Assembly: GCA_963751585.1 (NCBI GenBank) | Contig: CAVVVB010000003.1 | Location: forward strand, 8,667-72,666 | From: an uncultured Chloroflexia bacterium | GTDB lineage: Bacteria; Chloroflexota; Dehalococcoidia; GIF9; UBA5629 | Length of the DNA stretch: 64,000 bases | Direction: 5' to 3' | Shown here: piece by piece, positions 3,130 through 40,761 of the stretch | Numbering within the stretch: position 1 is the first letter of the stretch | How the letters are laid out: every line of letters begins with the position of its first letter | The notes under the pieces: generated by a model | What the model saw: only the letters and a program-made list of their open reading frames with translations | What the model was told of the DNA's origin: nothing | Databases searched by the model: none | Program-made: the position numbers and the translations under genes

Positions 3130-3246
3130 CTCAACCCCCGCTATGCTAGTTATGATAATGCAAACAAAGGAGCAGATGCAAATATGAATACATGGCGGTT
3201 AGCTTCACTTAGGAGCCTACTCTACCATCGCCCAACAGCCCGCTCT

Positions 3247-3296
3247 TGACAATATCAACTATTGGATTATATACTTTGTTGAGTATAATACTCAAC
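3247..3296 (+). promoter_or_regulatory. Promoter region of the rrf2-cysK-cysE operon overlapped by a perfect 11-bp-arm palindrome (candidate Rrf2/CymR operator)
   Basis: cTTGACAatatcaactattggattaTATACT, followed by TTGTTGAGTAT-A-ATACTCAACAA (3273-3295), lies 17 bp upstream of the regulator gene start. Confidence 0.55.
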
Positions 3297-3312
3297 AAGG
3301 CGAGGCATAGCT

Positions 3313-3756
3313 ATGAAGATTTCTACCAGGGGGCGGTATGGCACCAGGCTGCTTTTGGATCTGGCACTGCACAACGGCCAGGGGCCGATTCCATTGAAGG
3401 AGATTGCTGAGCGGCAGCAGATTTCACTTCTGTATTTGGAGCGTTTGGTTGCTCCGCTGATAGCTGCTGGACTGATAAGGAGCACCCGAGGCGCCCGTGG
3501 CGGAATCTGGCTCGCCAGATCTCCGGAAACGATAAGACTTAGCGAAATAGTTGGTCTACTTGAGGGCTCAGTTGGGCCGGTTGATTGCGTTAATGACCGC
3601 CAGGCTTGTCCTCGTTCTGATCTTTGTGTTACCCGTGATATATGGGTGGAACTAAAACAAGCAATGGATGGAGTCTTGGAATCGAGGACTTTGCGTGATC
3701 TGGTAGATATGCAAAAGAAGAGAGACCAGGTGGGCATGGTCATGTATGACATCTGA
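3313..3756 (+). CDS. Rrf2-family transcriptional regulator (CymR/IscR-like), probable repressor of the downstream cysteine/methionine genes
   Basis: 147 aa with an N-terminal Rrf2 HTH (MKISTRGRYGTRLLLDLALH...IAERQQISLLYLERL). It sits directly upstream of cysK and cysE. Confidence 0.85.
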   Translation: MKISTRGRYGTRLLLDLALHNGQGPIPLKEIAERQQISLLYLERLVAPLIAAGLIRSTRGARGGIWLARSPETIRLSEIVGLLEGSVGPVDCVNDRQACPRSDLCVTRDIWVELKQAMDGVLESRTLRDLVDMQKKRDQVGMVMYDI

Positions 3757-3809
3757 GCCAACAATAGGTTCGGTGTTTAACGTATCTATAAAAGTCGGGA
3801 GATGAGAGA

Positions 3810-4739
3810 ATGGCAAAAATAGCTAAAGACATTACAGGACTTATAGGCAATACTCCGCTGGTCAGATTAAATCGGATAACCAGAGGTGCTGAGGCTGAAG
3901 TTGTAGCCAAGCTTGAGTTCTTCAATCCTTGCAGCAGTGTCAAGGACCGCATTGCGGTAGCCATGATAATGGCTGCTGAAGAGCAGGGTCTGATAGAAAA
4001 GGATACGGTCATAATCGAACCCACCAGTGGCAACACTGGTATCGCTCTGGCATCTGTGTGTGCCTCGCGTGGCTACCGGTTGATATTGACTATGCCGGAA
4101 ACGATGTCAGCAGAACGGAGGCATATTCTGTCTATCTTCGGTGCTGAACTGATGCTAACACCTGGCAGTGAAGGTATGCCTGGAGCAATACGGAAAGCAG
4201 AGCTACTGGTAGCCGAAAACAAAAATTATTACATGCCGCAACAATTCAAAAACCCGGCAAATCCAAAAATTCACCGCGAGACCACGGCTGAGGAGATTTG
4301 GAAAAACACCGATGGCAAGGTGGATATTCTGGTGGCAGGTGTTGGAACCGGCGGTACCATTACCGGCGTGGCTGAGGCAATAAAACAAAAAAAGCCAGGA
4401 TTCAAAGCTATTGCTGTTGAGCCAGCTGACTCACCGGTTCTCTCCGGCGGCAAGCCTGGCTCGCATAAGATCCAGGGTATCGGGGCAGGTTTTATCCCTG
4501 AGGTAATGAGGCTGGACTTAGTTGATGAAATCATTAAGGTTACCAACGACGACGCCGGTGCCATGGCCAGAAGTTTAGCCAGAGAAGAGGGGATACTGGC
4601 TGGGATATCATCCGGCGCCGCGGCCTGGGCGGCTATTGAGGTTGCTGCAAGGGCCGAAAACAAGGGAAAGCTTATTGTGGTCATCTTGCCTGACACGGGC
4701 GAGCGTTACATATCCACCTGGCTTTTTCAGGGTCTGTGA
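3810..4739 (+). CDS. cysK: Cysteine synthase A (O-acetylserine sulfhydrylase)
   Basis: 309 aa PLP enzyme with PLP-lysine context SVKDRIA, the [10 protein letters not shown] loop and a GTGGTITG glycine-rich loop. Confidence 0.9.
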
Positions 4740-4780
4740 TCTGATTGGTTAAGAATTGAGATTGTGGAGAAACGGCTATC

Positions 4781-5497
4781 TTGTTTAAAGCATTGAGAGA
4801 GGACATTCGAACCGTATTTGCAAAGGATCCGGCGGCAAGAAACGCAGCGGAGGTTGTCCTGTTCTATCCCGGGCTGCATGCTGTGTGGTTTCATCGCCTG
4901 GCTCACTTTTTGTGGCGGCATAAGCTGCGCCTTCTAGCTCGTTTTGTTTCGCATCTCAGCCGTTTTCTAACCGGCATCGAAATTCACCCCGGAGCCAGGA
5001 TCGGCAGGAGGTTATTTATCGACCATGGTGCCGGCGTGGTAATCGGCGAGACGGCTGAAATAGGGGATGATGTGTTGATGTACCAGGGGGCTGTGTTGGG
5101 AGGGACCAGCCTAGAAAGGGAAAAACGCCATCCTACCGTCGGGGATAATGTGGTGATAGGTACTGGAGCCGTAGCTTTAGGTGCTATTACCATAGGCAAC
5201 GGTGCCAGAATCGGTTCTGGTTCGGTAGTGGTAAGGCCGGTACCGGCGGGAGCCACAGTAGTCGGAATCCCGGGAAGGGTGGTCGAAGATGGCCATGCTC
5301 CGCTGGGAAGTCTTGAGCATGGGAAGTTGCCCGATCCGGTGGCAGAAGCCATCAGGCTTGTCCTGAGAAAACAGGATTTGTTGGAGGCACGACTTAGAAA
5401 ACTGGAGGGCTCGGGCGACATAGAAGTTTTCGAAGATGAACTGGAAAAGGTAAAGGCTAGAATCGTGAGTGAATTCAGTGAAGGAGGTGGCATATGA
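4781..5497 (+). CDS. cysE: Serine O-acetyltransferase. The start is probably TTG at 4781.
   Basis: N-terminal SATase helical domain ([33 protein letters not shown]) followed by left-handed beta-helix hexapeptide repeats ([21 protein letters not shown]). Confidence 0.85.
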
Positions 5498-6636
5498 GGT
5501 TTGAAACTCTGGCCATTCATGCCGGGGAAAGACCGGACAAGGCATTCGGTGCCATGTCGGTGCCCATATATCAGACGTCGACATTCGCCTTTGAGGATGT
5601 GGGCAAGACGAGAGGCTATGACTACTCACGCACCTCCAATCCAACGAGAAAAGTTCTGGAGGATACCATCGCCGCATTGGAAGGTGGGAAGGCCGGATTT
5701 GCCTTCGCTACCGGCATGGCCGCTGAGACCACAGTGGCGCATCTTTTGAAGGCGGGCGACCATGTGATTTCGAGCGACGATGTCTATGGGGGAACGTACA
5801 GACTGTTTCAAAATGTGATGTGCGACCTGGGGTTGGAATTTACTTTTCTCAGGATGAACACCAGGCAGGCTGTGGAACGCGCCATAAAACCAAATACCAG
5901 GATGATATGGATAGAGACCCCTTCTAATCCGTTGCTCAATATTACCGACCTGGAGATGGTAGTTGACATTGCCAACAAGCATGGCATCTTGACGGTTATA
6001 GATAATACCTTCGCCACTCCTTATTTCCTTAGACCTATAGAATATGGGGTTGACCTGGTCGTGCATTCCACTACCAAGTATCTGAATGGACATTGTGATG
6101 TTGTCGGTGGTGCTGTAGTAACCACCACCGATGAATTGACCGAGAAGGTCCAGTTTCTGCTCAACGCTATGGGCACCTGTGCCTCGCCTTTCGATTGTTG
6201 GCTGGTGCTTCGTGGTATAGAGACGTTGCCTATAAGGATGGAAAGGCACGAGGAAAATGCTTCGGCTGTGGCGAACTACCTTCAGAAGCACAAAGCCGTC
6301 CGCAAGGTGTTTTATCCCGGAATCAAGTCTCATCCCGGACATGATATAGCCAGAAGGCAGATGAAAGGATTTGGAGGTGTGGTTTCCTTCGAATTAAAGG
6401 GCGGTTTGGAAGCAGCCAGTAGCTTTCTGCGAAAGTTAATGGTGTTCTCCATTGCGGAATCGCTGGGTGGGGCTACCTCCCTGGCTGAGCATCCGGCAAC
6501 GATGAGTCATGCCTCGATGCCATCTGAATACAAGGCCAAAATAGGTATAGGTGATGACCTGATACGATTATCAGTGGGCCTGGAGAATATTGAGGACTTG
6601 ATTGCTGATTTGGCAGAGGCTTTGAAGCCAGAATGA
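5494..6636 (+). CDS. Cys/Met-metabolism PLP-dependent enzyme (cystathionine gamma-synthase / beta-lyase / gamma-lyase family)
   Basis: 380 aa. The N-terminus [11 protein letters not shown] and a conserved PLP-lysine region (STTKYLNGH) match this family. Its start overlaps the cysE stop, so the two are in one operon. Confidence 0.85.
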
Positions 6637-6747
6637 ATACCCAGTTGAGTGAGCTTCACCAAATTTTCATAAAGGGTTCATAATGTTTTCATAATCACTT
6701 GCTAATATTCCAGAATTACGCAAAGACGGAAACGAAGGGAGTAGTGA

Positions 6748-7938
6748 ATGAAGTTATATCAAGTAGTTATAAAAGATGTTATGCGGAGAAAAAAGCGTGT
6801 GTTATACGCTACTCTGGGTGTTGTCATTGGAACGGCGACGGTTGTCGGCATACTAACTGTTGCCGTTGCCGGACAGGCTAGAATCTATAATCAGCTAGAG
6901 AAATATGGTCCCAATTTGACAGTCTTACCGGCAATAAGCAATCTGGATATGAAGCTGGGGGACATGAGTCTTGGGACATTGACCGTCGGCGATAACTACG
7001 TTTCGGAAGAGAAAATACCGGAAATTAGGCAGATAGCTGACAGTGAAATCAGAAGGGTGATGAAGATTGATGACCAGGGAGACATCGCTACCATTGCCCC
7101 AAACCTGTATATCGACACCAAGGTTGGTGACCTGTCGGTGATGGTAGTCGGGATAAAGCCAGAAGAGGAAGTCAAAATCAAGACATGGTGGAAGGTTCAC
7201 GAAGGTGAATTTCTTAAAGGCAAGGATCAGGCTCTGGTTGGCGCCGTCGCTGCTGAGATATTGAAGCTGAAAGTAGGCGACAGCGTCCCGCTCAACGGAA
7301 ACAATGTAACGGTTACCGGTATTCTTGAAGAAACAGGATCCAATGATGACTATCAAATATTTGTTCCCATAGAGACTCTGCAGAAGGCTTTCGGCAAGGA
7401 GGGGTTAGTTTCCTCAATCGATGTTCGGGCTCTTTGTAACTCATGCCCTGTGGAAACCATAGCTAGCGAAATAAATACGAATATCCCCGGCATTCGGGCA
7501 GTCGCGGTAAAACAGATAGCAGAGACCGAAATGGGAATGGTGGAAAAAATGAGCAAATTTCTGTTGGGTTTAGCCGGCATCACCCTTGCCGTGGGCTTGT
7601 TTGGGGTAGTCAATACGATGATGACTTCGGTCCATGAAAGGATCAAGGATATCGGCATAATGAGAGCTGTCGGGGCATCACGCGGTCAGATAGTCAAGGT
7701 CTTTATCTACGAAGCCATCATTATCGGAATAATTGGCGGCATTATCGGATATGTTGTAGGAACATTGTTGGCCCATGGCATTGGCCCTCTCCTCTTTGAG
7801 GGGACAACTGTTGCCTACGTTCCTCAGTACTTCCCCTTGGCACTGGCTCTGGCTGTCGTCGTCGCTGCTGTAGCAACTGTATATCCAGCACTTCGCGCAA
7901 CGAGGATCAAAGTTGCCGATTCCTTCAGGTCTTTATGA
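6748..7938 (+). CDS. ABC transporter permease, FtsX/MacB-like, with a large extracytoplasmic domain
   Basis: 396 aa. An N-terminal TM helix, a periplasmic domain of about 220 aa, then a C-terminal FtsX 3-TM bundle (GIMRAVGASRGQI...). Confidence 0.8.
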   Translation: MKLYQVVIKDVMRRKKRVLYATLGVVIGTATVVGILTVAVAGQARIYNQLEKYGPNLTVLPAISNLDMKLGDMSLGTLTVGDNYVSEEKIPEIRQIADSEIRRVMKIDDQGDIATIAPNLYIDTKVGDLSVMVVGIKPEEEVKIKTWWKVHEGEFLKGKDQALVGAVAAEILKLKVGDSVPLNGNNVTVTGILEETGSNDDYQIFVPIETLQKAFGKEGLVSSIDVRALCNSCPVETIASEINTNIPGIRAVAVKQIAETEMGMVEKMSKFLLGLAGITLAVGLFGVVNTMMTSVHERIKDIGIMRAVGASRGQIVKVFIYEAIIIGIIGGIIGYVVGTLLAHGIGPLLFEGTTVAYVPQYFPLALALAVVVAAVATVYPALRATRIKVADSFRSL

Positions 7939-7948
7939 GGTGACTGAA

Positions 7949-8641
7949 ATGTTAGAAATCAGAGAAATATCGAAAATTTACGGCGAGGACATTGGCCGAG
8001 TGGTTGCCCTCGATAAGGTTTCCCTTCAGGTAGACAAGGGTAATTTTATGGCTATCATGGGGCCTTCTGGCAGCGGTAAGAGCACCTTGTTGAATATCAT
8101 TGGTGGCCTTGATCGTCCCTCGAGCGGCGAGGTTATCTTGGAAGGTGAACGCATTGACGATCTGGATGAGAATGCGTTAGTCGACATCAGAAGGGGAAAA
8201 ATTGCTTATGTTTTTCAGCAGTATCATCTGCTCCCATCCCTCACTGCTCTGGAAAATGTGCTTCTGCCCCTGGTGTTTTGCGGAGCCAAGATTCAGGAAA
8301 ACAAGGCATTAGAAATATTGGAAAGGGTTGGTTTGGGGAAGAGGACAGGGCATAAGCCCAGCCAATTGAGCGGCGGAGAACAGCAGAGGGTGGCCATCGC
8401 CAGAGCTTTGGTCGGCTCACCGTCGCTTATCCTTGCAGATGAGCCGACAGGTAATATGGACCGGAGAACCGGAGGAGAAATTATGAGTTTGTTTACCCAA
8501 CTGCATGAGGAAGGCCACGGCATCATTATGGTTACTCACGATACTGAAGTAGCCGGCTTTGCCAACGCAATTATAGTCCTTCAAGACGGACAGATTGTCG
8601 ACGAAATCAGTAAAAAAACAAGGAGGCGACCAAGGAAATGA
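7949..8641 (+). CDS. ABC transporter ATP-binding protein (MacB/LolD type)
   Basis: Walker [10 protein letters not shown], the signature [15 protein letters not shown] and Walker B ILADEPTG. The RBS-supported ATG at 7949 is preferred over the track start at 7913. Confidence 0.9.
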
Positions 8642-9321
8642 GGAACAAAACCAAACAAATTGTAATCATCACCTTAGCCTGTCTGGCTGTTGCGGGACTG
8701 GCGCTGTCCTGCAGCAGCCAGAATAAGCTTGGTGTACGGCCGGGGACGGAAGAAGCCGTGCCGGCAACGTTCCAGTTATCCGGCCTATCGATTACTCCGA
8801 CAGAAGCTGCTGCCCACGAACAGATATTCATTACTGCTGACGCCACAAATGTGGGCACAGTTGATGATTTCTATGAGGCACGACTCAAGATAAATAATTC
8901 CATCGAGTTCTCGAATAAAGTGACGATACCTGCTGGACAGACACAGACTTTAACCTTCGCGGTATCCAAGGAGCAAGCCGGTACTTACCAAGTCAGTCTT
9001 GGCGACCTTGTTGGCCAGTTTGTGGTGGCTGAGCCGGTAGCGACACGGCCTTATAATCAGATATCTGCCATTTCTGGACTAGCCAGTGGTAGTTGCTGCG
9101 GTATCGGCAATCAGACATCTCCCGCGATTGGACAGGCCAGTGGAGGTTGCTGCGGTATCGGTAATCAGACATCTCCCGCGATTGGACAGGCCGGTGGAGG
9201 TTGCTGCGGTATCGGCAATCAGACATCTCCCGCGATTGGACAGGCCGGTGGAGGTTGTTGTGGAACAGGGGCTCAGAGTAATCCCGTAACCCCACGTCGT
9301 AGCTGTTGTGGTGGCGGATAG
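8638..9321 (+). CDS. Secreted protein with a signal peptide, a CARDB-like beta-sandwich domain and a C-terminal tandem Cys-rich repeat tail
   Basis: Hydrophobic signal (IVIITLACLAVAGLALSCSS). The CARDB-like segment reads ITPTEAAAHEQIFITADATNVGTVDDFYEARLKINN. The tail is three 20-aa repeats (GGCCGIGNQTSPAIGQAG) ending SCCGGG, encoded by a 60-bp x3 DNA tandem repeat. Confidence 0.6.
   Translation: MRNKTKQIVIITLACLAVAGLALSCSSQNKLGVRPGTEEAVPATFQLSGLSITPTEAAAHEQIFITADATNVGTVDDFYEARLKINNSIEFSNKVTIPAGQTQTLTFAVSKEQAGTYQVSLGDLVGQFVVAEPVATRPYNQISAISGLASGSCCGIGNQTSPAIGQASGGCCGIGNQTSPAIGQAGGGCCGIGNQTSPAIGQAGGGCCGTGAQSNPVTPRRSCCGGG
9086..9265 (+). repeat. Perfect or near-perfect 60-bp direct tandem repeat (x3) inside the 8638..9321 CDS
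   Basis: The unit ggttgctgcggtatcggcaatcagacatctcccgcgattggacaggccggtgga is seen three times head to tail. It also generates artefactual long ORFs in other frames and on the opposite strand. Confidence 0.85.
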
Positions 9322-9424
9322 AGATACATAATGCAGAAAAAGGAGTTTGCGCATGCACATTTGAAATGGCTCGCCGTTAGAATAAGTTAATATTTACTAT
9401 GAATAAACAAGGAGGGAATAACTC

Positions 9425-10006
9425 ATGTTAAAGAAAATCGTAATAGGGGTAGCGGCATTGATGCTGATGTTGGCAGCTGTCGCCTGCGCTAATTCAGCTT
9501 CGGCGCCGGCACCTGCGGCCACACCGCCATCAGTAACTTCACCTGTAGCTACATCCAGCCCCGCTCAGACACCCAATGCCGCAGCAACGCCTGTTCCTAA
9601 GCCATCGGGCCCCATAAAGGCTACATTGATCGAGCCTCAGGTTAACGGCGATTCTGTCTCTATTTCATTGAGTGATATCCAGAAAGACTGGAATACTCAG
9701 TTCGCCGTGAATACAAACAATGGCAAGATGAACTTCATGGCGTACGTATTGAATAATAAAGTCTACGTCAGGGCAGATCTTTGCCCGCCGTGCCGTTCGA
9801 TAGGCTATTCACTGGACGGAAACACGCTGGTGTGCGACAGATGTGCCACTACTTTCAAAGCCGATACGGGCAATGGCATTCAAGGAGCTTGTGTTAATTA
9901 CCCCAAAGCACTGGTACCGTATGAAATCGTCGACGGCAACGTCATCATGAAGCAGGCTGATCTTGCGCTTGCCTACGAGAACACCTTGACGCCCGGCTGG
10001 CCTTAA
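9425..10006 (+). CDS. Lipoprotein with a Pro/Ala/Thr-rich linker and a C-terminal Cys4 zinc-ribbon-like domain (possibly DUF2318-like)
   Basis: Lipobox LAAVACAN, a low-complexity PAPAATPPSVTSPVATSSPAQTP linker, then the C-terminal CPPCRS...CDRC motif plus further Cys residues. Confidence 0.5.
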   Translation: MLKKIVIGVAALMLMLAAVACANSASAPAPAATPPSVTSPVATSSPAQTPNAAATPVPKPSGPIKATLIEPQVNGDSVSISLSDIQKDWNTQFAVNTNNGKMNFMAYVLNNKVYVRADLCPPCRSIGYSLDGNTLVCDRCATTFKADTGNGIQGACVNYPKALVPYEIVDGNVIMKQADLALAYENTLTPGWP

Positions 10007-10115
10007 AAATAGAACTGGTAAGATTAGTGACGGGCTATCCGTATAGCCAGGAACGGGTAGCCCATCCGCTAATCTTAACTAGATAGGAATCTTGCGTATT
10101 TAGGAGGTTTGTGAT

Positions 10116-11342
10116 TTGTCATATGCCACAGGTTTGCGTTGTCGCAAATGTGGGCAAGAGTACCCCTTACAGCCTGTAAGGGTCTGTGATTTTTGTCTCA
10201 GCCCGGTAGAGGTCAACTACAACTATAAGGCGATGGCCGGTTCCATCAGCCGTGAGAAGATCTCCAAAGGGCCTTCAAGTGTGTGGCGCTACCGTGACTT
10301 GCTCCCTGTCGAGGGCGAAGAAGAGATCGACATAGGCGCCGGTTTCACGCCTCTGCTTAAAGCTCATAATCTCGGACGGGAGCTGGGATTAGACGACCTC
10401 TATGTTAAAAACGATTGCCTTAATCCCACATATTCTTTTAAAGACAGAGCTGTCTCGGTGGCAGTAACCAAAGCCCGCGAATTCGGTTTTGACACTGTTG
10501 CCTGTGCCTCAACGGGTAATCTGGCGGCCAGTGTGGCTGCCCATGCCGCCAAGGCAAACATGAAAGCCTATGTTTTTGTCCCGGCCAGTGTAGAGCCTGG
10601 CAAGTTGATAGGTGTGGCTATATATAAGCCGAACCTGGTTACCGTCGATGGCAGCTATGACGATGTCAACCGCCTCTGTGCGGAAGTGGCACAGCGATAT
10701 AACTGGGGGTTCATCAATATAAATCTCCGGCCATATTATGCCGAAGGTAGCAAGACGCTGGGTTTTGAAGTTGCGGAACAGCTGGGGTGGCGGGCGCCCG
10801 AATGCCTGGTGGCACCGGCGGCATCGGGTCTCCTGTTTACCCGGATTTGGAAAGGTTTACAAGAGCTGTCGATGCTTAAACTAATTGGACCGGTGGATAC
10901 CCACATGTATCTGACCCAGGCTGCGGGCAGCTCGCCTATTGTCAACGCATTTCAGGCCGGTAGCCTTCATGTTCATCCGGTGACACCCAATACGCTGGTC
11001 ACTTCCATAGCCATTGGCAATCCGGCCGATGGTTACTATGCTTTGACGGTGGCTCGACAATCGGGCGGCGGTGCCCAGGCCGTAACCGATGACGAGGCTA
11101 TCGAGGGGATGAAATTGCTGGCTCGAACCGAAGGCATTTTCGCCGAGGCTGCCGGCGGAGTGGTAATTGCTGGAGTTAAGAAGCTGGTCGCTGCCGGAGC
11201 CATTAAAAAAGACCAACTTACGGTCGCTTGTATCACTGGAGCCGGCCCGAGAACACAGGAGATTGTTTCCGATGTTGTCCACTCGTTTCATGTCCAGCCA
11301 AGTCTGGAATCGTTCAGAGAGGTCCTCGGTGTGGAGGTTTGA
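10116..11342 (+). CDS. Threonine-synthase-family PLP enzyme with an N-terminal Zn-ribbon (ThrC or a ThrC-like sulfur-incorporating paralog)
   Basis: 408 aa. N-terminal CRKCG...CDFC ribbon, PLP-lysine context SFKDRAV, and the fold-type II PLP core. It is the first gene of a tight 4-gene operon. Confidence 0.8.
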   Translation: MSYATGLRCRKCGQEYPLQPVRVCDFCLSPVEVNYNYKAMAGSISREKISKGPSSVWRYRDLLPVEGEEEIDIGAGFTPLLKAHNLGRELGLDDLYVKNDCLNPTYSFKDRAVSVAVTKAREFGFDTVACASTGNLAASVAAHAAKANMKAYVFVPASVEPGKLIGVAIYKPNLVTVDGSYDDVNRLCAEVAQRYNWGFININLRPYYAEGSKTLGFEVAEQLGWRAPECLVAPAASGLLFTRIWKGLQELSMLKLIGPVDTHMYLTQAAGSSPIVNAFQAGSLHVHPVTPNTLVTSIAIGNPADGYYALTVARQSGGGAQAVTDDEAIEGMKLLARTEGIFAEAAGGVVIAGVKKLVAAGAIKKDQLTVACITGAGPRTQEIVSDVVHSFHVQPSLESFREVLGVEV

Positions 11343-11389
11343 AATCAGCGCCTCAAATAGATTAATCTTACCTATTACAGGAGGACACC

Positions 11390-11632
11390 ATGGCTAGAAG
11401 GCAGGTAATGTTCACCTTCCCACGGGAGTTGATAAAAGAGCCTATTATTTATGATCTATCGCATAAATTTCAAGTGGTGACCAATATTCGCCGTGCCGAT
11501 GTGTCGGAGAACAGGGGCTGGGTAGTGCTGGAGCTGGAAGGTGACGACAAACAGATTGAGGCCGGCGTTGCCTGGGTTGTTGAGAAAGGCGTCAGAGTTG
11601 ATCCGGTGGTTGGTGATATAGTTGAAGGTTGA
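11390..11632 (+). CDS. Stand-alone NIL-domain protein (the domain found at the C-terminus of MetN ABC ATPases)
   Basis: 80 aa. The pattern II-YDLS-KF-V-TNIRRADV...GWVVLELEGDD-QIEAG-AW--EKGVRV resembles the MetN C-terminal NIL/ferredoxin-like fold. Confidence 0.6.
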   Translation: MARRQVMFTFPRELIKEPIIYDLSHKFQVVTNIRRADVSENRGWVVLELEGDDKQIEAGVAWVVEKGVRVDPVVGDIVEG

Positions 11633-11635
11633 CCT

Positions 11636-12802
11636 ATGAAAAGAATATATCTTGACTATGCTGCCACTACGCCGACACATCCAGAAGTATTGAAGGCGAT
11701 GTTACCCTATTTCACCGATTCCTTCGGTAATCCTTCCAGCATACATTCATATGGCCAGGAAGCCAGGGACGCTATTGAAAAGGCGCGAAATCAGATCGCA
11801 GCTCTTATCAGTGCCAGAAGTGAGGAGATTGTGTGCACTGGCAGTGGCACTGAAGCCGATAATTTCGCGCTGACTGGCGTCGCCTTGGCCCGGCAGGCCA
11901 AAGGAAATCATATTATCACCTGTGCCATCGAACATCACGCCGTGTTGGAAACCTGTAAGTTCTTGCAAAAACAGGGAGTCGCGGTTACCTATCTTCCCGT
12001 GGATGGTTATGGCAGAGTTGACCCGGATGATGTCAAAAAGGCAATCACCAATAAAACTGTCCTGCTATCAATAATGCATGCCAATAATGAATGCGGCACT
12101 ATTGAACCAGTTGCAGCCATCGCCAAGATTGCCCGTGAGGCTGGGGTTTATTTTCACACTGATGCCGTGCAGACAGTAGGTCATATTCCGGTGAATGTAA
12201 ATGAGTTAGGCGTTGATCTTCTGTCCAGTTCCGGGCATAAGCTTTATGGGCCCAAGGGCGTAGGTATACTCTATATCAGAAAAGGTACTAAGATAAGCCC
12301 GTTTATGCATGGTGGCGGCCAGGAGAAGGGAAGGCGGGCCAGTACTGAGAACGTGCCAGCTATTGTGGGCTTCGGCCAGGCCGCCGAAATAGCACGGCTA
12401 GAGATGCTCGAAGAAGCTCGGAGATTGACCGCTATGCGCGACAGGCTAGTCGACGGCATACTCCAGAGCATTGAAGGCACGCAGTTGAATGGCCATCCTA
12501 CGGCCAGGCTGCCCAACAATGTAAATGTCAGCGTTGACTATGTGGAAGGCGAATCGATGCTGTTGAATTTGGATTTAGCTGGAATCTGCGTCTCCACGGG
12601 CTCAGCCTGTAGCTCGGGAGACGCTGAACCATCGCACGTTTTGATGGCGATGGGGCTGCAGCCTTTACAGGCACACGGCTCTTTGCGATTTACCTTGGGT
12701 AAATGGACTACCGAGCAGGAAATAGACCACGTGCTGGAGGTGCTGCCCGGGATCATCTCCAAGCTCAGAGCTATGTCCCCTCTCATGAAGACCTCAAGCT
12801 AA
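11636..12802 (+). CDS. Cysteine desulfurase (NifS/IscS class V aminotransferase)
   Basis: 388 aa beginning MKRIYLDYAATTP. PLP-lysine region SSSGHKLYGPKGVG and the active-site loop SACSSG. Confidence 0.9.
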   Translation: MKRIYLDYAATTPTHPEVLKAMLPYFTDSFGNPSSIHSYGQEARDAIEKARNQIAALISARSEEIVCTGSGTEADNFALTGVALARQAKGNHIITCAIEHHAVLETCKFLQKQGVAVTYLPVDGYGRVDPDDVKKAITNKTVLLSIMHANNECGTIEPVAAIAKIAREAGVYFHTDAVQTVGHIPVNVNELGVDLLSSSGHKLYGPKGVGILYIRKGTKISPFMHGGGQEKGRRASTENVPAIVGFGQAAEIARLEMLEEARRLTAMRDRLVDGILQSIEGTQLNGHPTARLPNNVNVSVDYVEGESMLLNLDLAGICVSTGSACSSGDAEPSHVLMAMGLQPLQAHGSLRFTLGKWTTEQEIDHVLEVLPGIISKLRAMSPLMKTSS

Positions 12803-12833
12803 ACACGTAAACCTGCAAAAGGAGTTCAACTTT

Positions 12834-13898
12834 ATGAGCTCAATGCCGGAAATAGGCAAGATTTCACCCAAGGTCTTCGACGAGCTTATAGCTACACGCC
12901 TTGGTGCCAAGAGCGATAAGATTCTGGTCGGGCCTCAGAATGGCGTGGATGTGGGGATCGTGGAGATTGGAGGCCAGGCGGTTTCTTTCACCTGTGACCC
13001 CGTATTCATTGTGCCTGAATACGGCTGGGAGAGGTCGGCCTGGTTTGCCATTCATATCATTGCCTCCGACTCCGTGACCGGCGGACTCAAGCCCAAATTT
13101 TTGGCTATCGATTTGAATCTTCCCATGGAGATGACCGCCGAGCAACTTGAGATTATCTGGAAGACCATGCACCGGGAGTGTGTCAATCTGGGCATCTCGG
13201 TCATCACCGGCCATACTGGCCGATATGAGAACTGCCATTATCCTATGGTAGGTGGAGCCACGCTGGTAGGCATCGGCGCCAAAGACGGGTATGTCACTCC
13301 CAGGCTGGCGCGTGCCGGAGATAAGATAATCATTACCAAGGGGCCGGCTATTGAGGCGACGGGCATTTTCGCCACCATGTTTCCCAAACTTATTGAGCGC
13401 GAGTTCGGCAGAGATTTCAGCCTGAAAGCCCAGGACATTTTTTACAAAATGTCGGTGGTGGATGATGCTATGACTGCCGTGAGCATTGGGGTCCGGGATA
13501 AGGGCGTAACCGCCATGCATGATGCTACCGAATGTGGAATCTGGGGCGGACTGTACGAAATTGCACAGGCGGCCAATCTGGGTGTTAGAGTGGAAATGGA
13601 TAATATCGTAGTCGAGGATGGCGTGAAGGAAATATGCCATTATTTTAGCATCGACCCTTTCGCTTCTATCAGTGAAGGCACCCTGATTATGTCCTGCCGG
13701 GCGCACAAAGCCGATGAAATGCTGAAGGCACTACGACAGAAAGGCATCAAGTGTTCCATCGTCGGGGAGTTTACCCAGCCGAAATTTGGGATGGTGCTCG
13801 TACGAGGCGGCAAAGAAGGCAAGCTCGAACACCCCATTGTCGACCCCTTCTGGAGAGCCTTCTACGAGGCTATAGAAAAGTATAAAGATCAGGCCTGA
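12834..13898 (+). CDS. AIR-synthase-related (PurM-like) protein of unknown specific function
   Basis: 354 aa with a PurM-superfamily N-domain (GPQNGVDVGIV...DPVFI) and a C-domain. It lacks the characteristic C-terminal motifs of HypE, SelD and ThiL. Confidence 0.7.
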   Translation: MSSMPEIGKISPKVFDELIATRLGAKSDKILVGPQNGVDVGIVEIGGQAVSFTCDPVFIVPEYGWERSAWFAIHIIASDSVTGGLKPKFLAIDLNLPMEMTAEQLEIIWKTMHRECVNLGISVITGHTGRYENCHYPMVGGATLVGIGAKDGYVTPRLARAGDKIIITKGPAIEATGIFATMFPKLIEREFGRDFSLKAQDIFYKMSVVDDAMTAVSIGVRDKGVTAMHDATECGIWGGLYEIAQAANLGVRVEMDNIVVEDGVKEICHYFSIDPFASISEGTLIMSCRAHKADEMLKALRQKGIKCSIVGEFTQPKFGMVLVRGGKEGKLEHPIVDPFWRAFYEAIEKYKDQA

Positions 13899-14044
13899 CT
13901 TCCTCACTTCTGTAAAGACAGACCTCAGCATAGTCTCATTCGACCAACCGAGCCGAGAACGGTATAATATGAATATATTTTGTCTTTCCGCGCCATATGA
14001 AAGTTGGCTGCGTATCGAATGTTGAAATGGTTAGGAGTTGATCT

Positions 14045-14479
14045 ATGGCCAAGATAATTGCCGTCTGCAAGAGTGATAAAAAGGGGACTACGAAGGAAGA
14101 CGTGAAGGAAGGGATGTTGGAGAAGGACTTCGGACTCGTTGGCGATGCCCATGCTGATTGCTGTACTCACCGGCAGGTGAGTTTGCTGGCTGTAGAGAGC
14201 ATCGACAAGATGCGAGCACTGGGTCTGGATCTCAAACCCGGTGATTTTGCTGAAAATCTGACCGTCGAAGGTATGGATCTGGTGTCTTTGCCGGTGGGCA
14301 CACAGGTTTCGGTGGGGAAAGATGTTCTCCTTGAGATCAGTCAGATCGGCAAAGAATGTCATAGCGGCTGTGCTATCTTCAAGCAGGTGGGCAAGTGCAT
14401 AATGCCTAAAGAGGGGATATTCGCTCGGGTAATTAGAGGCGGTCCGGTTAAGACCGGGGACCGGATAAAGGTATCATAA
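14045..14479 (+). CDS. MOSC-domain protein (Mo-cofactor-sulfurase C-terminal-domain family)
   Basis: 144 aa. A beta-barrel MOSC-like pattern (GDAHADCCTHRQVSLLAVES...GENLTVEG...G) and a conserved Cys. Confidence 0.75.
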   Translation: MAKIIAVCKSDKKGTTKEDVKEGMLEKDFGLVGDAHADCCTHRQVSLLAVESIDKMRALGLDLKPGDFAENLTVEGMDLVSLPVGTQVSVGKDVLLEISQIGKECHSGCAIFKQVGKCIMPKEGIFARVIRGGPVKTGDRIKVS

Positions 14480-15908: not shown

Positions 15909-16781
15909 TCATGTATATAACTTTACAAAACCCGCCTTAAAGTCGGTATGTTTCATGCCAAGCAAAACAAGAATAGAAGCACGTACAAGCGCTCTTCCGG
16001 CTGTGCGTGTCTCTTGGGCATTCGCCTCACTAAGTCGTGATAGTTGGCCGTCATGAAAGCCATCATTTCTTAACTTATAGAGATCATTAAGCCTAGGAAT
16101 CGCGGGAAACTGTTGATCCACGAGCAATGACTCCACTTTTTGAAACTTATTTCCGGGCTTGCCTAGAAAATTTGCCTGTGACTCAAGACATACCCAATTC
16201 AGAGCAGCTTCAACCAACGGTCTTCCGATCTCGAATTCTCGTAGGGCACTAAAAAACCACTGCATCGCCAAACGAAGTCGCGTTTCTTCAATTGTTGGAA
16301 TAATACTTAGTGCTTTCTCGAAGTTGTCTGTCGCTTTATCGGGCGGTGCAGCAAGTTCATGAAATCCCTCGCCACCTGTAACAAAGGCTAGAGATGAAGA
16401 CCAGTCTGCCACAGATTTTCTTGTTTCCCTCCACAAATATTGACAGCTCCCGCCAAAATAAATAGACGTGAATGCAAGTAAATCATCTATGATAGTCCTA
16501 TCGCTGGATGGTTCAAAAACGGAATCATTAGGAGGGATGCCGTAATATTCGATCACTATCGCTGCGTGTTTGAGACAATAGTCCACATCTGAAATTTGTG
16601 CTTTGGGAGTTAGAAGGGGATTAAATCCATAGGAAGATTCGTAAGAGAAATCACTTGGTTTTAGGATATACCAATTTCTCTTACTTAAAAATGGTGCAGC
16701 AAACTTTGTCCACCAGATTGTATGTGGCGCATTAACTATGTATCTAATGAATGGTTTGGGGGCCGTGACAATCTGTGTCAC
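15909..16781 (-). CDS. Hypothetical protein (island cargo)
   Basis: 290-aa ORF in the low-GC insert. No family recognised by eye. Confidence 0.5.
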   Translation of the reverse strand: MTQIVTAPKPFIRYIVNAPHTIWWTKFAAPFLSKRNWYILKPSDFSYESSYGFNPLLTPKAQISDVDYCLKHAAIVIEYYGIPPNDSVFEPSSDRTIIDDLLAFTSIYFGGSCQYLWRETRKSVADWSSSLAFVTGGEGFHELAAPPDKATDNFEKALSIIPTIEETRLRLAMQWFFSALREFEIGRPLVEAALNWVCLESQANFLGKPGNKFQKVESLLVDQQFPAIPRLNDLYKLRNDGFHDGQLSRLSEANAQETRTAGRALVRASILVLLGMKHTDFKAGFVKLYT

Positions 16782-16935
16782 AATGCACTCTCGTAATTAG
16801 GTCGGTCACTTATACAAGTTATACTGTTGGTCTTACACGTCAGTTTACCATGCTGTGATCGGCGCAACAACTGCTGCTGAGCAATAGAAGGCAACAAATA
16901 GCCAGAAGGTGACATTTGTAACCGTTGGAGAAAAC

Positions 16936-17832
16936 TTAATTATTTAATAGCATTCGCCTCATTTGTTTGACTTTTATGTTCCAGCCGTTCTTTTCAATTG
17001 CGCTGTGTAATTGCTCGATATTCTTCTTAGCTAATTGAGAATATCCTCCGGCAACAACAATGCCTTCTACACTACTTTCATCGCGGGCAATAAGAATGCT
17101 ATTAGGCATGGGGTCATCGGTATTATCAAATAATCCGAGTTGCTTTTTTTGCTCGTAATTTTTTTGGTAGCAGGTTGCGTAATCATTGATATGTTCTCTG
17201 ACGTGTTGAACGTAGTCGTTTACCTGTTTGCCTGCCTTCTCCCGAAGTTCTGGATTTCTTCCCAGCTTAATCTCAAGGACAACGAAATGATACTTTCCTG
17301 TCTCTCCACGTTTTAGTGCTAACAGGTCAACTCTAGCCCAATTGAGATGGTCCGCGACCTGGCGGTCAATGATAAAAAAATCAGGGTTAGGAGGGTTATC
17401 TGTAACGATGACTTGCTCCATCGTTATCTCTTCACCATTGTGCACCTTTCGTATCTGCCCACTGATGCGATCCAGATGATTCCTCTGAAAGAAGCGATGT
17501 AACTTGTCGCTTTGGATATTGAAACTAATGTATTCTCCACTAAATCGCCGGTTTAAAGAACAAGCTTCAAGCTTTTTATATATGTCATCAGAGATAAATT
17601 TCTTGTGTATCTTCGCTGTGTAGGTTCGACTCATCGTTTTTGGTGTTACCTGGGCAACTGAATTACCTTGGTAGTAAATATTGAAGCAATCCTGCCGGAT
17701 TTGAAGGTTGTATTCTTCATTCGAATTATTGATGAGTTTGACAACAGGTTTGAGGTCTTTCTTTATCATCTCCCAATCTTCATCCACGTGGCTAAAGAAA
17801 CGGTCAATAGTTCGTATGTAATTTGTGCTCAT
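16936..17832 (-). CDS. Hypothetical protein with a PD-(D/E)xK-nuclease-like motif (island cargo)
   Basis: 298 aa. The region FFIIDRQVADH...GKYHFVVLEIKLG fits a D...(E)xK restriction-endonuclease-fold active-site pattern. Confidence 0.45.
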   Translation of the reverse strand: MSTNYIRTIDRFFSHVDEDWEMIKKDLKPVVKLINNSNEEYNLQIRQDCFNIYYQGNSVAQVTPKTMSRTYTAKIHKKFISDDIYKKLEACSLNRRFSGEYISFNIQSDKLHRFFQRNHLDRISGQIRKVHNGEEITMEQVIVTDNPPNPDFFIIDRQVADHLNWARVDLLALKRGETGKYHFVVLEIKLGRNPELREKAGKQVNDYVQHVREHINDYATCYQKNYEQKKQLGLFDNTDDPMPNSILIARDESSVEGIVVAGGYSQLAKKNIEQLHSAIEKNGWNIKVKQMRRMLLNN

Positions 17833-17859
17833 TCTTTCCTCCTAAGAGTGGCGATAAGA

Positions 17860-19149
17860 TTACAGGATTAATTCCTGACCATCATCAACTAGGATAACAT
17901 TAGAGAACATCTCATTGAACCTTTCGGGATAGAAAGTGTGGATCGGGATAATGAATCTCGGTTTAAGAGCTTCACTGATATCTCTCAAATGCTGAAGAAC
18001 GGCATGACCACTTGTGTGTATCTCCGATAATTCAATACCACGTTCAGCTAAAAACTCAGGCAGATTATTTCTTTCAAGATACCCGTGCCACATCGAGTAG
18101 ACAGTTGTCGCTTCACCACACTTGGTTATCAAGCTACGGTAGAACCGATTATCCTTGGACAGGACGACTTTATTTTCAGGCTCGATGTAAATCTCCTTTG
18201 GTTTTATCCTATGCTTGGCATATTTATACAGGAGCTGTTCATCCAGTTTCGCCAGTTTTTGGGCATGGTGATGAAGAAAGAAGACCCGCACGTTGTCCCA
18301 ATTGAATTGGGGGATATTCGGTGACAAGTCACGGAGCTTTTCAAGAACGAATGCCGTATACAAGTCTATTATGAAAGTTCTATCGGACTTCTTTGCTGCT
18401 CGATATATAGATACGATGCGATCTAGGTTCTGCGACGATGTAAAGACAAAGCAGATTTTCTTATCGACTCGCATCTTGTGAACCAGTGCTTCTTCAACAG
18501 AGGTTTCGTCAGGATAAAGCCCCTCTTCTCTACCGATCATCGAGCCTTCCATGATCAGATAATCTATGTTCTCAGGAGGTTGCTTTATCAACCTTTCAAG
18601 TAAGATCTTTTTCCTTCCGTGACCGCGGAAATCACCCGTATAGAATATCCTCTTCTGGTCATGTTCTATGAGAAATGCAGCGGCGTCAGGAGCAGAGTGA
18701 TCCATGAGATATGGAGTGATGGTGAAACCGCTGATTTTAAAAGGTCTCCACATCATAAACGTTTTGATATTAACAACATTGATATTAGCTTCGATGAAGA
18801 GGTTTGACACTTCAGCTAATGACTTGGTTCCCCTGCTCATATATATGGGGATATCCGGTTGAACGAATTGCAGGAATCCATAGTGGTCTTGATGGGCATG
18901 AGATAATAGTACCGCTGAAACAGGTGATTGACTGGAATTATAAAGGCCTTCGATAGCAGGTAATATCTTAAGATCGATCAACTGTTGAGCACTTTTCCCT
19001 TTGTGTACGCTCCACTCGAACTGTGTCCTGTCCGATTTTACTAGGGGCATACCAAAGTCTAGAATCAGTCGCGCGCCAGTAGAGTCGGAAGATATTTGGA
19101 CACAGCTTCCCCCGATTTCATGGGTGCCACGATGAATCGTGAGTCTCAC
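17860..19149 (-). CDS. Metallo-beta-lactamase-fold hydrolase (island cargo), possibly a nuclease
   Basis: 429 aa. The HxHxDH motif (LLSHAHQDHYGFLQ) and a downstream FYTGDFRGHG (Asp motif) are typical of MBL/beta-CASP-type enzymes. Confidence 0.7.
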   Translation of the reverse strand: MRLTIHRGTHEIGGSCVQISSDSTGARLILDFGMPLVKSDRTQFEWSVHKGKSAQQLIDLKILPAIEGLYNSSQSPVSAVLLSHAHQDHYGFLQFVQPDIPIYMSRGTKSLAEVSNLFIEANINVVNIKTFMMWRPFKISGFTITPYLMDHSAPDAAAFLIEHDQKRIFYTGDFRGHGRKKILLERLIKQPPENIDYLIMEGSMIGREEGLYPDETSVEEALVHKMRVDKKICFVFTSSQNLDRIVSIYRAAKKSDRTFIIDLYTAFVLEKLRDLSPNIPQFNWDNVRVFFLHHHAQKLAKLDEQLLYKYAKHRIKPKEIYIEPENKVVLSKDNRFYRSLITKCGEATTVYSMWHGYLERNNLPEFLAERGIELSEIHTSGHAVLQHLRDISEALKPRFIIPIHTFYPERFNEMFSNVILVDDGQELIL

Positions 19150-19605
19150 GCACGTATTATAATGCTGGTTATCAACTTCTTACAAACGGTGTAATTACTG
19201 CAAAAGCTATAGGGTTAAATGTATGCAAGGAATAGTAAACAAATCATCGTTTTGTGCAGGGGATGGTGTCGCTCTGCCACGAGGGCTCTTGAAATTTTCT
19301 CTCTAGGCTGGTCTAAAGCTATGAAGTCCCTGAAATAATCGCTCTTCACATAATCGGTGGAAATGAAGACTACCTGAACTGGATCGACAGCGAGGTTAGA
19401 GGAGCTGAACGTCTGGCAACTCAGATTTACTTTCACGGTTAATGTTAGTACTTCAAAATGATACCCTCGTCACAACCGTCGGCAACGGAGATTACCTGAA
19501 GCGGATAGATAACGAAGCCAGGCAGAAGCCAGCTAACCATATAAGAATGCAGAGTTGGTTGTATAATGAGAAATATAGGCACTTAGGCAGTGAAGGAGGT
19601 CACCT

Positions 19606-20064
19606 ATGATTGCAGTAGGCAGCAAGGCACATGATTTTATGTTGAGCGACCACAACGGTAAGCAGGTGACATTATCAGGCATTAAAGGTAGAAAAGTGCT
19701 GCTCTCATTTCACCCGCTAGCTTGGACTAGCGTCTGTGCCGAGCAGATGAAATCACTGGAAGCTAACTATGCACAGTTAGAAAAGCTGAACACCATAGCT
19801 TTTGGTTTGAGCATCGATTCGGTGCCCTGCAAGAAGGCCTGGGCTAAGGAGCTGGCTATTGCCAAAACCAGTCTCCTCTGTGACTTCTGGCCTCACGGTG
19901 GCGTGGCCAAGTTGTACGATATATTCAGGGAGAAGGATGGATTTTCCGAGAGAGCCAACATTGTTGTCGACGAAAATCTAAAGGTCACATTTGCTCAGAC
20001 CTATCCCATCTCCCAGCTGCCCGATATCAACGAGATCATAAAACTTCTGGACGGAAAGCGTTGA
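19606..20064 (+). CDS. Peroxiredoxin (AhpC/TSA / Bcp-type thiol peroxidase)
   Basis: 152 aa. Thioredoxin fold with peroxidatic Cys in FHPLAWTSVCAEQ and a second Cys in VPCKKAWAKE. Confidence 0.85.
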   Translation: MIAVGSKAHDFMLSDHNGKQVTLSGIKGRKVLLSFHPLAWTSVCAEQMKSLEANYAQLEKLNTIAFGLSIDSVPCKKAWAKELAIAKTSLLCDFWPHGGVAKLYDIFREKDGFSERANIVVDENLKVTFAQTYPISQLPDINEIIKLLDGKR

Positions 20065-20068: not shown

Positions 20069-20575
20069 CTAGATGAAACGTTCGAACCGGTCTTTTTTAG
20101 CCCGGCATATCGGACATAATTCAGGCGGGCCGTCTCTGGCGCATAAATAGCCGCAGACCTTACACCTCCATACCGGGAGGGGGAGTTCCACCAGGCCTTT
20201 CTGAGGTTTGGTCGCTTTCTTTGCCAGCACGTTCGCTGGCCGTCGTTCGGGTATCGATCCTATGGTCTTTTCGCCGTTGACAACCGCCTGGGAGACGTAA
20301 AGGCCGCAATAACAGGTGTCGTATTCGCTAAGGTCGGGATCTCTGTAATCGCAGGGACATATGATGTCCAAGTCCTTCTCCTTAACTCCGGAAGCCAGCC
20401 GGCACGGGCAAGCCATGTACCCGTATCGCTTCTCATTTACCAGCAGGCCTTTTACCAGGTCTTTGGTAAGCTCAACGTCCGGGTTAAGGAAATAGCTGCC
20501 GTATTGAGCGTCTCTCTTTAGTTTCTCATACCTGCTATCGATCTCGCTCCCTGTTATTGGCGGCTGATTCGTCAT
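20069..20575 (-). CDS. Ferredoxin:thioredoxin reductase catalytic subunit fused to a C-terminal rubredoxin-like domain
   Basis: FTR-B signature Cys pattern (CPCRL...CPCD...CYCGLY) plus a C-terminal CKVCGY...CPIC rubredoxin-type knuckle pair. Confidence 0.8.
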   Translation of the reverse strand: MTNQPPITGSEIDSRYEKLKRDAQYGSYFLNPDVELTKDLVKGLLVNEKRYGYMACPCRLASGVKEKDLDIICPCDYRDPDLSEYDTCYCGLYVSQAVVNGEKTIGSIPERRPANVLAKKATKPQKGLVELPLPVWRCKVCGYLCARDGPPELCPICRAKKDRFERFI

Positions 20576-40758: not shown

Positions 40759-40761
40759 CCG

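Follow-up and report, generated by a model that had tools for sequence, protein, structure and literature searches.

A thiocarboxylate pathway to homocysteine carried out by MetM and MetO was reportedly described in Streptomyces by Hasebe et al. in 2024. Within this pathway, metM and metO constitute a route which forms homocysteine from O-phosphohomoserine and a thiocarboxylate (PMC12172450; GapMind 2026 preprint). In the unrelated homocysteine-forming enzyme L-ASST, a NIL domain is reported to bind methionine and regulate activity (PMC12068725). Dehalococcoides produces O-phosphohomoserine via HomK. Here, we describe a gene cluster which encodes a putative MetM-like enzyme next to a stand-alone NIL protein. 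The cluster lies within a 64-kb stretch of DNA (hereafter the window; 64,000 nucleotides of contig CAVVVB010000003.1) from an uncultured Chloroflexia bacterium of the Dehalococcoidia lineage. Our analysis covered this window and loci (±10 kb) of relatives and other organisms, which are designated by L-numbers. We favor, with a probability of about 0.58, a composite explanation in which the cluster is a Dehalococcoidia-specific juxtaposition of three functions: a MetM-like enzyme with its NIL partner, the cysteine desulfurase NifS, and a PurM-like protein of thiamine metabolism.

The cluster consists of four open reading frames (ORFs) on the + strand, encoding proteins of 408, 80, 388, and 354 amino acids (aa) and separated by intergenic gaps of 47, 3, and 31 bp. 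An earlier reading of this DNA (the original prediction) had proposed this arrangement, and both the ORF list and profile searches bore out its coordinates, gaps, and domain calls. The cluster genes were found together again in at least nine further related loci, so the arrangement is not a product of chance. All four genes are probably cotranscribed in the window. The first gene begins with a TTG codon at 10116, a start shared by its ortholog in L002. The features of the cluster are as follows, with PLP denoting pyridoxal 5'-phosphate and ThrC threonine synthase.

10103 to 10108, + strand: ribosome-binding site AGGAGG, 7 nt 5' of the TTG start (direct sequence reading)
10116 to 11342, + strand: ThrC-fold PLP enzyme of the MetM-like clade, 408 aa (Pfam PALP, 238 bits, plus an N-terminal ribbon)
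10140 to 10196, + strand: N-terminal zinc-ribbon motif CxxC(x11)CxxC (C9, C12, C24, C27), also present in the MetM-locus protein introduced below and in archaeal-type ThrC models
10431 to 10448, + strand: PLP-lysine motif YSFKDR (K109), with Tyr for the Gly of all solved ThrCs (alignment)
10722 to 10757, + strand: clade signature NLRPYYAEGSKT, replacing SVNP(Y/H)R(L/I)EGQKT of canonical ThrC (alignment)
11390 to 11632, + strand: stand-alone NIL-domain protein, 80 aa, without Cys, C-terminus GDIVEG (Pfam NIL PF09383, 53.5 bits against a cut-off of 24)
11636 to 12802, + strand: NifS-type cysteine desulfurase, 388 aa (TIGR03402, 581 bits against a cut-off of 530)
12834 to 13898, + strand: PurM-superfamily protein, 354 aa, of an unnamed thiamine-regulon family (Pfam AIRS and AIRS_C)
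12855 to 12875, + strand: N-terminal loop GKISPKV of the PurM-like protein, aligned to the K20 loop CGCKISPKV of E. coli SelD

A translated search returned a chromosomal gene of Nonomuraea gerenzanensis as the best match of the 408-aa protein among annotated records (48% identity, 347 bits). This gene is preceded by an S-adenosylmethionine (SAM) riboswitch (68.7 bits) and followed by a 91-aa ThiS/MoaD-like ORF ending in AVAGG. As both features match the published description of metM/metO, we took the gene to be a MetM locus. Within the catalytic core, identity to the MetM-locus protein is 52-56% for the 408-aa protein and five of its orthologs. Against the solved ThrCs of four bacteria (B. subtilis, A. 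aeolicus, T. thermophilus, and M. tuberculosis) it falls to 37-41%, and against the plant ThrC to 27%.

Residues T88, S155, R160, and N188 (Thermus numbering) are invariant across all five solved ThrCs. We take these four positions to be the substrate-phosphate site, while the conservation pattern itself was computed. The window protein, its orthologs, and MetM carry L, N, Y, and S at these positions (T88L, S155N, R160Y, and N188S), with L88 universal among 97 clade members. Similarly, the Gly which precedes the SFK PLP-lysine motif (Thermus G58) is Tyr in the window protein and Tyr or His in the clade. Altogether, the ThrC-invariant residues G58, T88, S155, R160, and N188 are not kept in the window protein (Y, L, N, Y, and S, respectively). 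A neighbor-joining (NJ) tree likewise placed the 408-aa protein in one clade with MetO-associated enzymes, apart from the solved ThrCs and from haloarchaeal zinc-ribbon paralogs. The original prediction had raised the possibility that the protein is not a canonical threonine synthase; this was upheld, as the protein groups with the MetM homocysteine-synthase clade and shares its active-site replacements.

To sample this clade, 120 metagenomic loci with GC contents of 0.46 to 0.75 were retrieved by a degenerate DNA pattern for NLRPYYAEGSKT. Nearly all of them were of the MetM-MetO or the MetM-like-NIL type. At least 330 bp were present 3' of the enzyme gene in 86 of the 120 loci, which we refer to as loci with room. 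A MetO-like gene adjoined the enzyme gene in ~77 of these 86 (55 identified by BLAST and 22 by a hidden Markov model, HMM), and the MetO-like proteins end in GG or in GG followed by 1-6 residues. NIL was found instead of MetO in all seven loci with room whose enzyme is at least 69% identical to the window protein (Dehalococcoidia type). Rfam searches revealed an SAM riboswitch 5' of the enzyme gene in 14 of 16 MetO-type loci tested, in none of the four NIL-type loci tested, and not at the window cluster. Indeed, neither an SAM nor a thiamine pyrophosphate (TPP) riboswitch was detected within or 5' of the cluster (Rfam at gathering threshold over the window, and at E<=5 over 9300-14100).

The MetO partners and SAM riboswitches mark the MetM clade, the window protein included, as a methionine-regulated gene family. 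The link to sulfur amino-acid metabolism which had been suggested for the ThrC-like enzyme thus holds for its clade, given the SAM-riboswitch control of MetO-type loci. The suspicion at the core of the original prediction, that a ThrC homolog makes homocysteine instead of threonine, likewise gains support from the clade, the signature, and this riboswitch control. Judged from its sequence, the 408-aa protein is a candidate O-phosphohomoserine-dependent homocysteine synthase, and we infer its substrates and sulfur donor from these directly observed features of clade, signature, partner genes, and riboswitches.

The NIL protein is strongly conserved. Its best 120 matches are at least 80% identical, and nearly all 120 share the C-terminus GD(I/V)(I/V)EG. 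A role of NIL as a protein-bound sulfur donor was not borne out: the window protein contains no cysteine among its 80 residues and ends in -EG rather than -GG. With no cysteine and this C-terminus, NIL has no means of carrying a persulfide and its thiocarboxylation is improbable, and the window NIL gave no match to the MetO HMM. A role as the sulfur carrier replacing MetO was rejected on the same grounds and because NIL coexists with MetO in L111, L150, and L158. As these orthologs occur inside operons which also encode MetO, NIL is not merely a stand-in for it.

The position of NIL within these operons varies. The order is MetM-like - MetO - NIL in L111 and L150. In L158, one NIL gene (NIL1) lies just 5' of the SAM riboswitch and another (NIL2) between the riboswitch and the MetM-like gene, giving the order NIL1 - SAM riboswitch - NIL2 - MetM-like - MetO. 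NIL1 of L158 is 45% identical to the window NIL across all 80 residues. The expectation that NIL is a recurrent partner of MetM-type genes was therefore confirmed, both by the seven Dehalococcoidia-type loci with room and by the three MetM-MetO operons. We also noted that L158, from an unrelated high-GC organism, contains a complete sulfur amino-acid super-operon (1514-8302), in the order Rrf2, CysK, a ThiS-like carrier fused to E1, a CysM-like fragment, a JAMM protease, NIL, the SAM riboswitch, the second NIL, MetM-like, and MetO.

Most likely, NIL serves the MetM-like enzyme as an accessory subunit and senses methionine, a ligand which we infer from the partnership of the two genes and from the NIL domain of L-ASST. 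The window NIL is not a NIL-ferredoxin fusion of the L-ASST type, being an 80-aa protein without Cys, and no DUF39 gene was present among the window ORFs scanned. The literature searches we ran returned no description of NIL as an accessory gene of MetM operons.

Several observations speak against a MetM-type function for the window enzyme. MetO, the defining partner of MetM, is not encoded near it. No MetO-like ORF was found in the 64-kb window, where ORFs of 55-120 aa ending in GG gave only chance matches, and neither the window nor 19 related loci gave a significant match to the MetO HMM. In the tree, with moderate support, NIL-type sequences form a sister group of the MetO-type clade instead of branching within it, such that the NIL-type enzyme may catalyze another reaction, threonine synthesis included. 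The window protein also passes TIGR00260 (thrC) with 282 bits against a cut-off of 167. Finally, Dehalococcoides itself is reported to have thrC and to use the DUF39 route for homocysteine (PMC5764234).

These same points would favor an alternative in which the 408-aa protein is a true zinc-ribbon threonine synthase, NIL responds to methionine and regulates the branch point at O-phosphohomoserine, and NifS and the PurM-like protein are unrelated neighbors. Such a regulator would have an analogy in the activation of plant threonine synthase by SAM. This alternative is further favored by the local lack of an SAM riboswitch, by a score which nearly reaches NF006050 (287.5 bits against a cut-off of 303), and by the PDB matches, every one of which is a threonine synthase (203 bits for the best solved ThrC). 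However, the MetM-locus protein also passes TIGR00260, with 270 bits, so this model cannot separate ThrC from MetM. Curated family models were dropped as a means of telling the two apart because both proteins pass. At the four positions which never vary among solved ThrCs, whether bacterial or plant, the window protein has exactly the residues of the SAM-riboswitch-controlled MetM clade, and identity to MetM exceeds that to the solved bacterial ThrCs by 11-19 points. Moreover, the neighboring genes are cysK, cysE, metB/C-like, and NifS, never hom, thrB, or homK, none of which was present among the ORFs scanned in the window and related loci. The same NIL family also sits inside MetM-MetO operons. 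On this evidence we judge a threonine synthase to be unlikely, though it deserves to be kept in view.

A further possibility is that the ThrC-like protein acts as a cysteate synthase, or as some other ThrC derivative in cofactor metabolism of the coenzyme M type. Cysteate synthase has been described as ThrC-derived, and the window protein gave a weak match to its model, TIGR03844, which spans the N-terminal ribbon. Yet this match reached only 78 bits against a cut-off of 325, the protein is far nearer to the MetM clade, and no coenzyme M genes were present among the window ORFs scanned. We give this identity almost no credence.

The 388-aa protein is, by its sequence motifs, a genuine NifS-type cysteine desulfurase, with the PLP Lys in GHK (aa 200-202) and the catalytic Cys in GSACSS (aa 322-327). 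In the window, L002, L129, L137, and L193, a gap of 0-4 bp separates its gene from the preceding NIL gene; in L003 and L063, too, NIL is immediately followed by NifS in the gene order. The linkage of NifS to NIL, part of the original prediction, is thus a direct succession in much of the Dehalococcoidia-type lineage. In L004, L005, L010, and L012, orthologous NifS is followed by NifU and then the PurM-like gene. This pairing with NifU in relatives suggests that NifS is probably also a housekeeping desulfurase of iron-sulfur (Fe-S) assembly.

As no MetO carrier is encoded nearby, the sulfur donor of the MetM-like enzyme would be either free sulfide or a persulfide of NifS. NifS may serve as a persulfide donor, consistent with its adjacency, and free sulfide is an equally plausible nucleophile. 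A rhodanese-type MoeZ was not found, and Mec was not searched for. The window does encode a ThiF/MoeB-family E1 (21054-22187, + strand) which scored 337 bits against NF009123, below the cut-off, with no rhodanese domain detected and no ThiS/MoaD-like gene adjoining. Facing it are ORFs for a glutaredoxin-like protein and for a Cys-rich protein whose C-terminus is rubredoxin-like (20069-20871, - strand). Given the many Mo/W enzymes in the window, this E1 is probably related to molybdenum cofactor synthesis.

For the fourth protein, the original prediction had listed HypE, SelD, and ThiL as identities to be checked. None stood, as the 354-aa protein scored far below the cut-off of every named NCBIfam model, including HypE (TIGR02124, 82 against 252 bits), ThiL (TIGR01379, 60 against 184 bits), and SelD (TIGR00476, 52 against 125 bits). 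The C-terminal Cys of HypE is absent, the protein ending in ...EKYKDQA. Its N-terminal loop, PEIGKISPKV, keeps the lysine of the SelD loop, and G8 and K9 are invariant or nearly so in the family. The Cys/selenocysteine (Sec) found three residues earlier in SelD is absent in 13 of 13 aligned family members.

This family comprises 355 clusters at E<=1e-30, and in three of its representatives ThiN, a thiamine-phosphate synthase, is fused to one end or the other. We surveyed the neighborhoods (±7 to 10 kb) of PurM-like genes in 79 loci from species-representative genomes of many phyla. ThiE was encoded nearby in 16 of the 79 loci (by clustering), mostly directly adjacent, along with ThiD in 10-11, TenA in four, and ThiC in three. 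ThiM, ThiG, ThiS, and ThiH were found in 0 of 79, and Thi4 was not tested. A TPP riboswitch lies just 5' of the PurM-like gene in 10 of 20 loci by Rfam and in 24 of 76 by a strict pattern. Close relatives with this riboswitch are L006, L010 (NifS-NifU-[TPP]-PurM-like), and L011 (NifS-[TPP]-PurM-like-ThiE); the window copy itself has none by either Rfam or pattern. With X as the PurM-like gene, examples of thi operons include [TPP]-X-thiE-thiD-tenA in L031 and thiC-X-thiD-thiE in L041.

TPP riboswitches, thi neighbors, and ThiN fusions place this family in thiamine metabolism. The ThiN fusions and ThiE adjacency had suggested a substitute for ThiL, which was rejected because genuine ThiLs (317 and 279 bits) are encoded directly beside the PurM-like genes in L024 and L074. 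Suspected ThiS and ThiG neighbors of 73 aa and 268-272 aa proved to be NifU, a PP-loop ATPase, FdhD, and others. As the PurM-like gene sits in the operon slot usually held by thiM, our best guess is an ATP-dependent phosphotransferase of the thiazole branch, akin to hydroxyethylthiazole kinase. We found no description of a TPP-riboswitch-controlled PurM-like family in the literature searches run, nor anything relevant on alternatives to ThiL or on fusions between ThiN and AIR-synthase-like proteins.

Three further arrangements of PurM-like genes were observed. In L049, L052, and L059 (metagenome-assembled genomes, MAGs, labelled Omnitrophota or Planctomycetales; ~7800-12000), the order NifU - 270-aa PP-loop ATPase - NifS - PurM-like - BirA is conserved. 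These PurM-like genes have sulfur-mobilizing neighbors, without a TPP riboswitch or thi genes, and fit no explanation so far. L003 (7761-12427) contains the NifS-PurM-like pair twice in tandem with identical PurM-like sequences, reflecting either a recent duplication or an assembly artifact. In L022 (370-3684), a TPP riboswitch precedes genes for a class-I methyltransferase, the PurM-like protein, TenA, and ThiE; a methyltransferase in a thi operon is unusual.

The thiamine link bears directly on the proposal that all four proteins form one persulfide-dependent pathway. In such a pathway, the SelD-like PurM protein would use ATP to activate sulfur from NifS, e.g. as thiophosphate, for the ThrC-like enzyme. 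SelD receives selenium from NifS-like lyases, and the GKISPKV loop aligns with the SelD catalytic loop. The tight gaps between the four genes are consistent with this proposal, as are the true NifS orthologs encoded beside the PurM-like gene in MAGs labelled Dehalococcoidia/Chloroflexi, Omnitrophota, and Planctomycetales. (Actinobacterial "NifS" neighbors of PurM-like genes, cluster C1, were dropped as class-V enzymes only 21-28% identical.) In addition, at least nine related loci keep the PurM-like gene close to the MetM-like-NIL pair, at a distance of 0-3 genes. In L112 and L007 it directly follows NIL, with no riboswitch found there. This proximity counts against treating the PurM-like protein as a separate function, and the PurM-like and MetM-like-NIL genes of L112 and L007 may be functionally linked.

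Nevertheless, ThrC-like and NIL genes accompany the PurM-like gene only in Dehalococcoidia within the 79-locus set; outside this group, ~65 of the 79 PurM-like loci are without any ThrC-like or NIL gene. The PurM-like gene was also not seen in the MetM-MetO operons of the 120 loci outside the Dehalococcoidia type. In many lineages a TPP riboswitch stands directly 5' of it, and in L010 and L011 this element parts it from NifS/NifU. The ThiE, ThiD, ThiC, TenA, and ThiL neighbors, the ThiN fusions, and the missing SelD Cys/Sec argue in the same direction. A single four-gene pathway was therefore not borne out, since the unit is not conserved outside Dehalococcoidia and its PurM-like member is tied to thiamine; we regard it as improbable. 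By the same riboswitch control, thi links across many phyla, and fusions, the placement of the PurM-like protein in a sulfur amino-acid route also fell.

The composite explanation can be stated as a mechanism. The MetM-family PLP enzyme would convert O-phosphohomoserine to homocysteine through gamma-replacement by a sulfur nucleophile, with sulfur drawn from free sulfide or from the persulfide of the adjacent NifS. NIL would act as a methionine-binding accessory or regulatory subunit, in place of the SAM riboswitch of other MetM operons. NifS would serve sulfur mobilization, possibly feeding the MetM-like enzyme and probably Fe-S assembly too. The PurM-like protein would belong to a separate, widespread, TPP-riboswitch-regulated family and act as a thiazole-branch phosphotransferase in thiamine metabolism. 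A stricter, joint version can only be put forward tentatively. It would combine a MetO-independent route in Dehalococcoidia, a NifS persulfide or sulfide donor, and methionine feedback through NIL with an unrecognized TPP-riboswitch-controlled thiamine family of PurM/SelD-like proteins. This family would be an analog of thiazole kinase or, less likely, perform a NifS-fed thiazole-forming step.

Genes 5' of the cluster, in the window and in relatives, are listed below.

3313 to 6636, + strand: rrf2 - cysK - cysE - cystathionine gamma-synthase/lyase-like cluster (cysK, TIGR01139, 470 bits; cystathionine gamma-synthase model NF005871, 509 bits against a cut-off of 513)
9425 to 10006, + strand: FtrD-like Cys-rich lipoprotein (Pfam FtrD-like, 53.8 bits)
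L112, 722-1297; L129, 4366-5553; L178, 1-498: FtrD-like genes in relatives, with gaps of 11-33 nt

The second sulfur locus noted in the original prediction (rrf2-cysK-cysE-metB/C-like) is thus real and near the cluster. Related genes come closer in other genomes: in L002, L007, and L193, cysK-cysE-metB/C-like genes lie immediately beside the MetM-like gene, with the metB/C-like gene directly 5' of it, and in L129 the metB/C-like gene lies ~3 kb 5'. An FtrD-like lipoprotein gene is found directly 5' of the MetM-like ortholog in L003, L112, L129 (two tandem copies), and L178, and may belong to the same transcription unit in L112, L129, and L178. In the window, a long, near-perfect hairpin (10015-10081, + strand) lies between the FtrD-like and MetM-like genes, with a minimum free energy of -40.9 kcal/mol for 10004-10118 (z = -4.8). 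It gave rise to a spurious mir-129 match. This hairpin was dropped as a regulatory element of the operon, as relatives are without it and their gap here is just 11-33 nt.

Elsewhere in the window, a 227-aa predicted lipoprotein (8638-9321, + strand) is encoded between a MacB-type ABC permease and ATPase (5') and the FtrD-like gene (3'). Its C-terminal half consists of Cys-Cys tandem repeats, CCGIGNQTSPAIGQA(S/G)GG three times, followed by CCGTG... and SCCGGG, and it might bind metal or sulfide at the cell surface. The sole Rfam match in the window at gathering threshold was a Moco/Tuco (molybdenum/tungsten cofactor) riboswitch (RF01055, 63035-63169, - strand, 61.4 bits). An aldehyde:ferredoxin oxidoreductase (43306-45152, + strand) is split into two ORFs (AFOR_N, 191 aa, and AFOR_C, 427 aa) with a 13-nt overlap, for which a frameshift, sequencing error, or recoding is possible. 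Molybdopterin-oxidoreductase and 4Fe-4S genes at ~46200-52600 (- strand) appear as overlapping or truncated ORFs (e.g. 48337-49452, 49406-50266, and 51651-52586), possibly reflecting in-frame TGA (selenocysteine) or frameshifts. Two stretches of low GC content, 16000-20000 and 36000-42000 (0.40-0.44, compared with ~0.51 elsewhere), are probably acquired islands. One contains a metallo-beta-lactamase-fold protein and two unassigned ORFs, and the other a DNA methylase with a DCD-like domain.

MetM/MetO has been known since 2024, and the MetO-less, NIL-coupled, NifS-linked form in Dehalococcoidia is new. Such genes are annotated as "threonine synthase" across Chloroflexota MAGs. If they form homocysteine, reconstructions of methionine and threonine prototrophy in Dehalococcoidia are systematically wrong. 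A MetO-less, NIL-coupled variant, if true, would mean that the MetM pathway can operate without a thiocarboxylate carrier. The NIL domain would also gain a second, independent link to homocysteine synthesis, making its long-assumed methionine sensing directly testable. The PurM-like family, with thousands of members in many phyla behind TPP riboswitches, is a candidate for a missing step of the thiamine pathway.

Among known systems, the PurM-like protein resembles ThiL, SelD, and HypE in its AIRS and AIRS_C domains and conserved Asp/His motifs of the ATP site, and shares an N-terminal Lys loop with SelD and a thiamine context with ThiL. It differs in its sub-cut-off scores, in lacking the HypE Cys and the SelD Cys/Sec, and in coexisting with a genuine ThiL in one operon. 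With ThiM of tenA-thiM-thiD-thiE-type operons it shares the operon slot and the TPP-riboswitch control typical of thiM. However, ThiM has a ribokinase-like fold and is not homologous, and thiazole kinase activity is only proposed for the PurM-like protein.

The window NIL shares its Pfam domain, and the conserved Asn of the N-I-(L/R) motif, with the NIL domains of MetN and of the L-ASST ferredoxin subunit (DUF39 pathway). All have a link to the transport of methionine or the synthesis of homocysteine, and the domain has been proposed to act as a methionine-sensing regulator. In contrast, the window NIL stands alone, without an ABC ATPase or ferredoxin domain, and its partner is a PLP enzyme with a fold unlike DUF39. 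A looser analogy is offered by ACT-type small subunits such as IlvN/IlvH of acetolactate synthase, which are small, ligand-binding proteins of end-product feedback beside a biosynthetic enzyme, as NIL may be; NIL belongs to another domain family.

The 408-aa enzyme resembles canonical ThrCs (B. subtilis 6CGQ, T. thermophilus 1UIM, M. tuberculosis 2D1F, and A. aeolicus 2ZSJ) in its fold, SFKDR context, passing of TIGR00260, and, probably, its substrate O-phosphohomoserine. It differs in its 37-41% identity, the L/N/Y/S signature, the Tyr before SFK, the extra zinc ribbon, and the lack of hom/thrB adjacency. The closest counterpart is MetM/MetO of Streptomyces. Relative to this system, the window cluster has NIL (80 aa, without Cys or GG) in place of the ThiS/MoaD-like MetO, lacks an SAM riboswitch, continues with NifS, and encodes an enzyme of a sister clade. 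What the two hold in common is a PLP enzyme of the ThrC fold which begins with a zinc ribbon, a small protein gene immediately 3', and surrounding genes of sulfur amino-acid metabolism; core identity to the MetM-locus protein is 52-56%, with four identical replacements.

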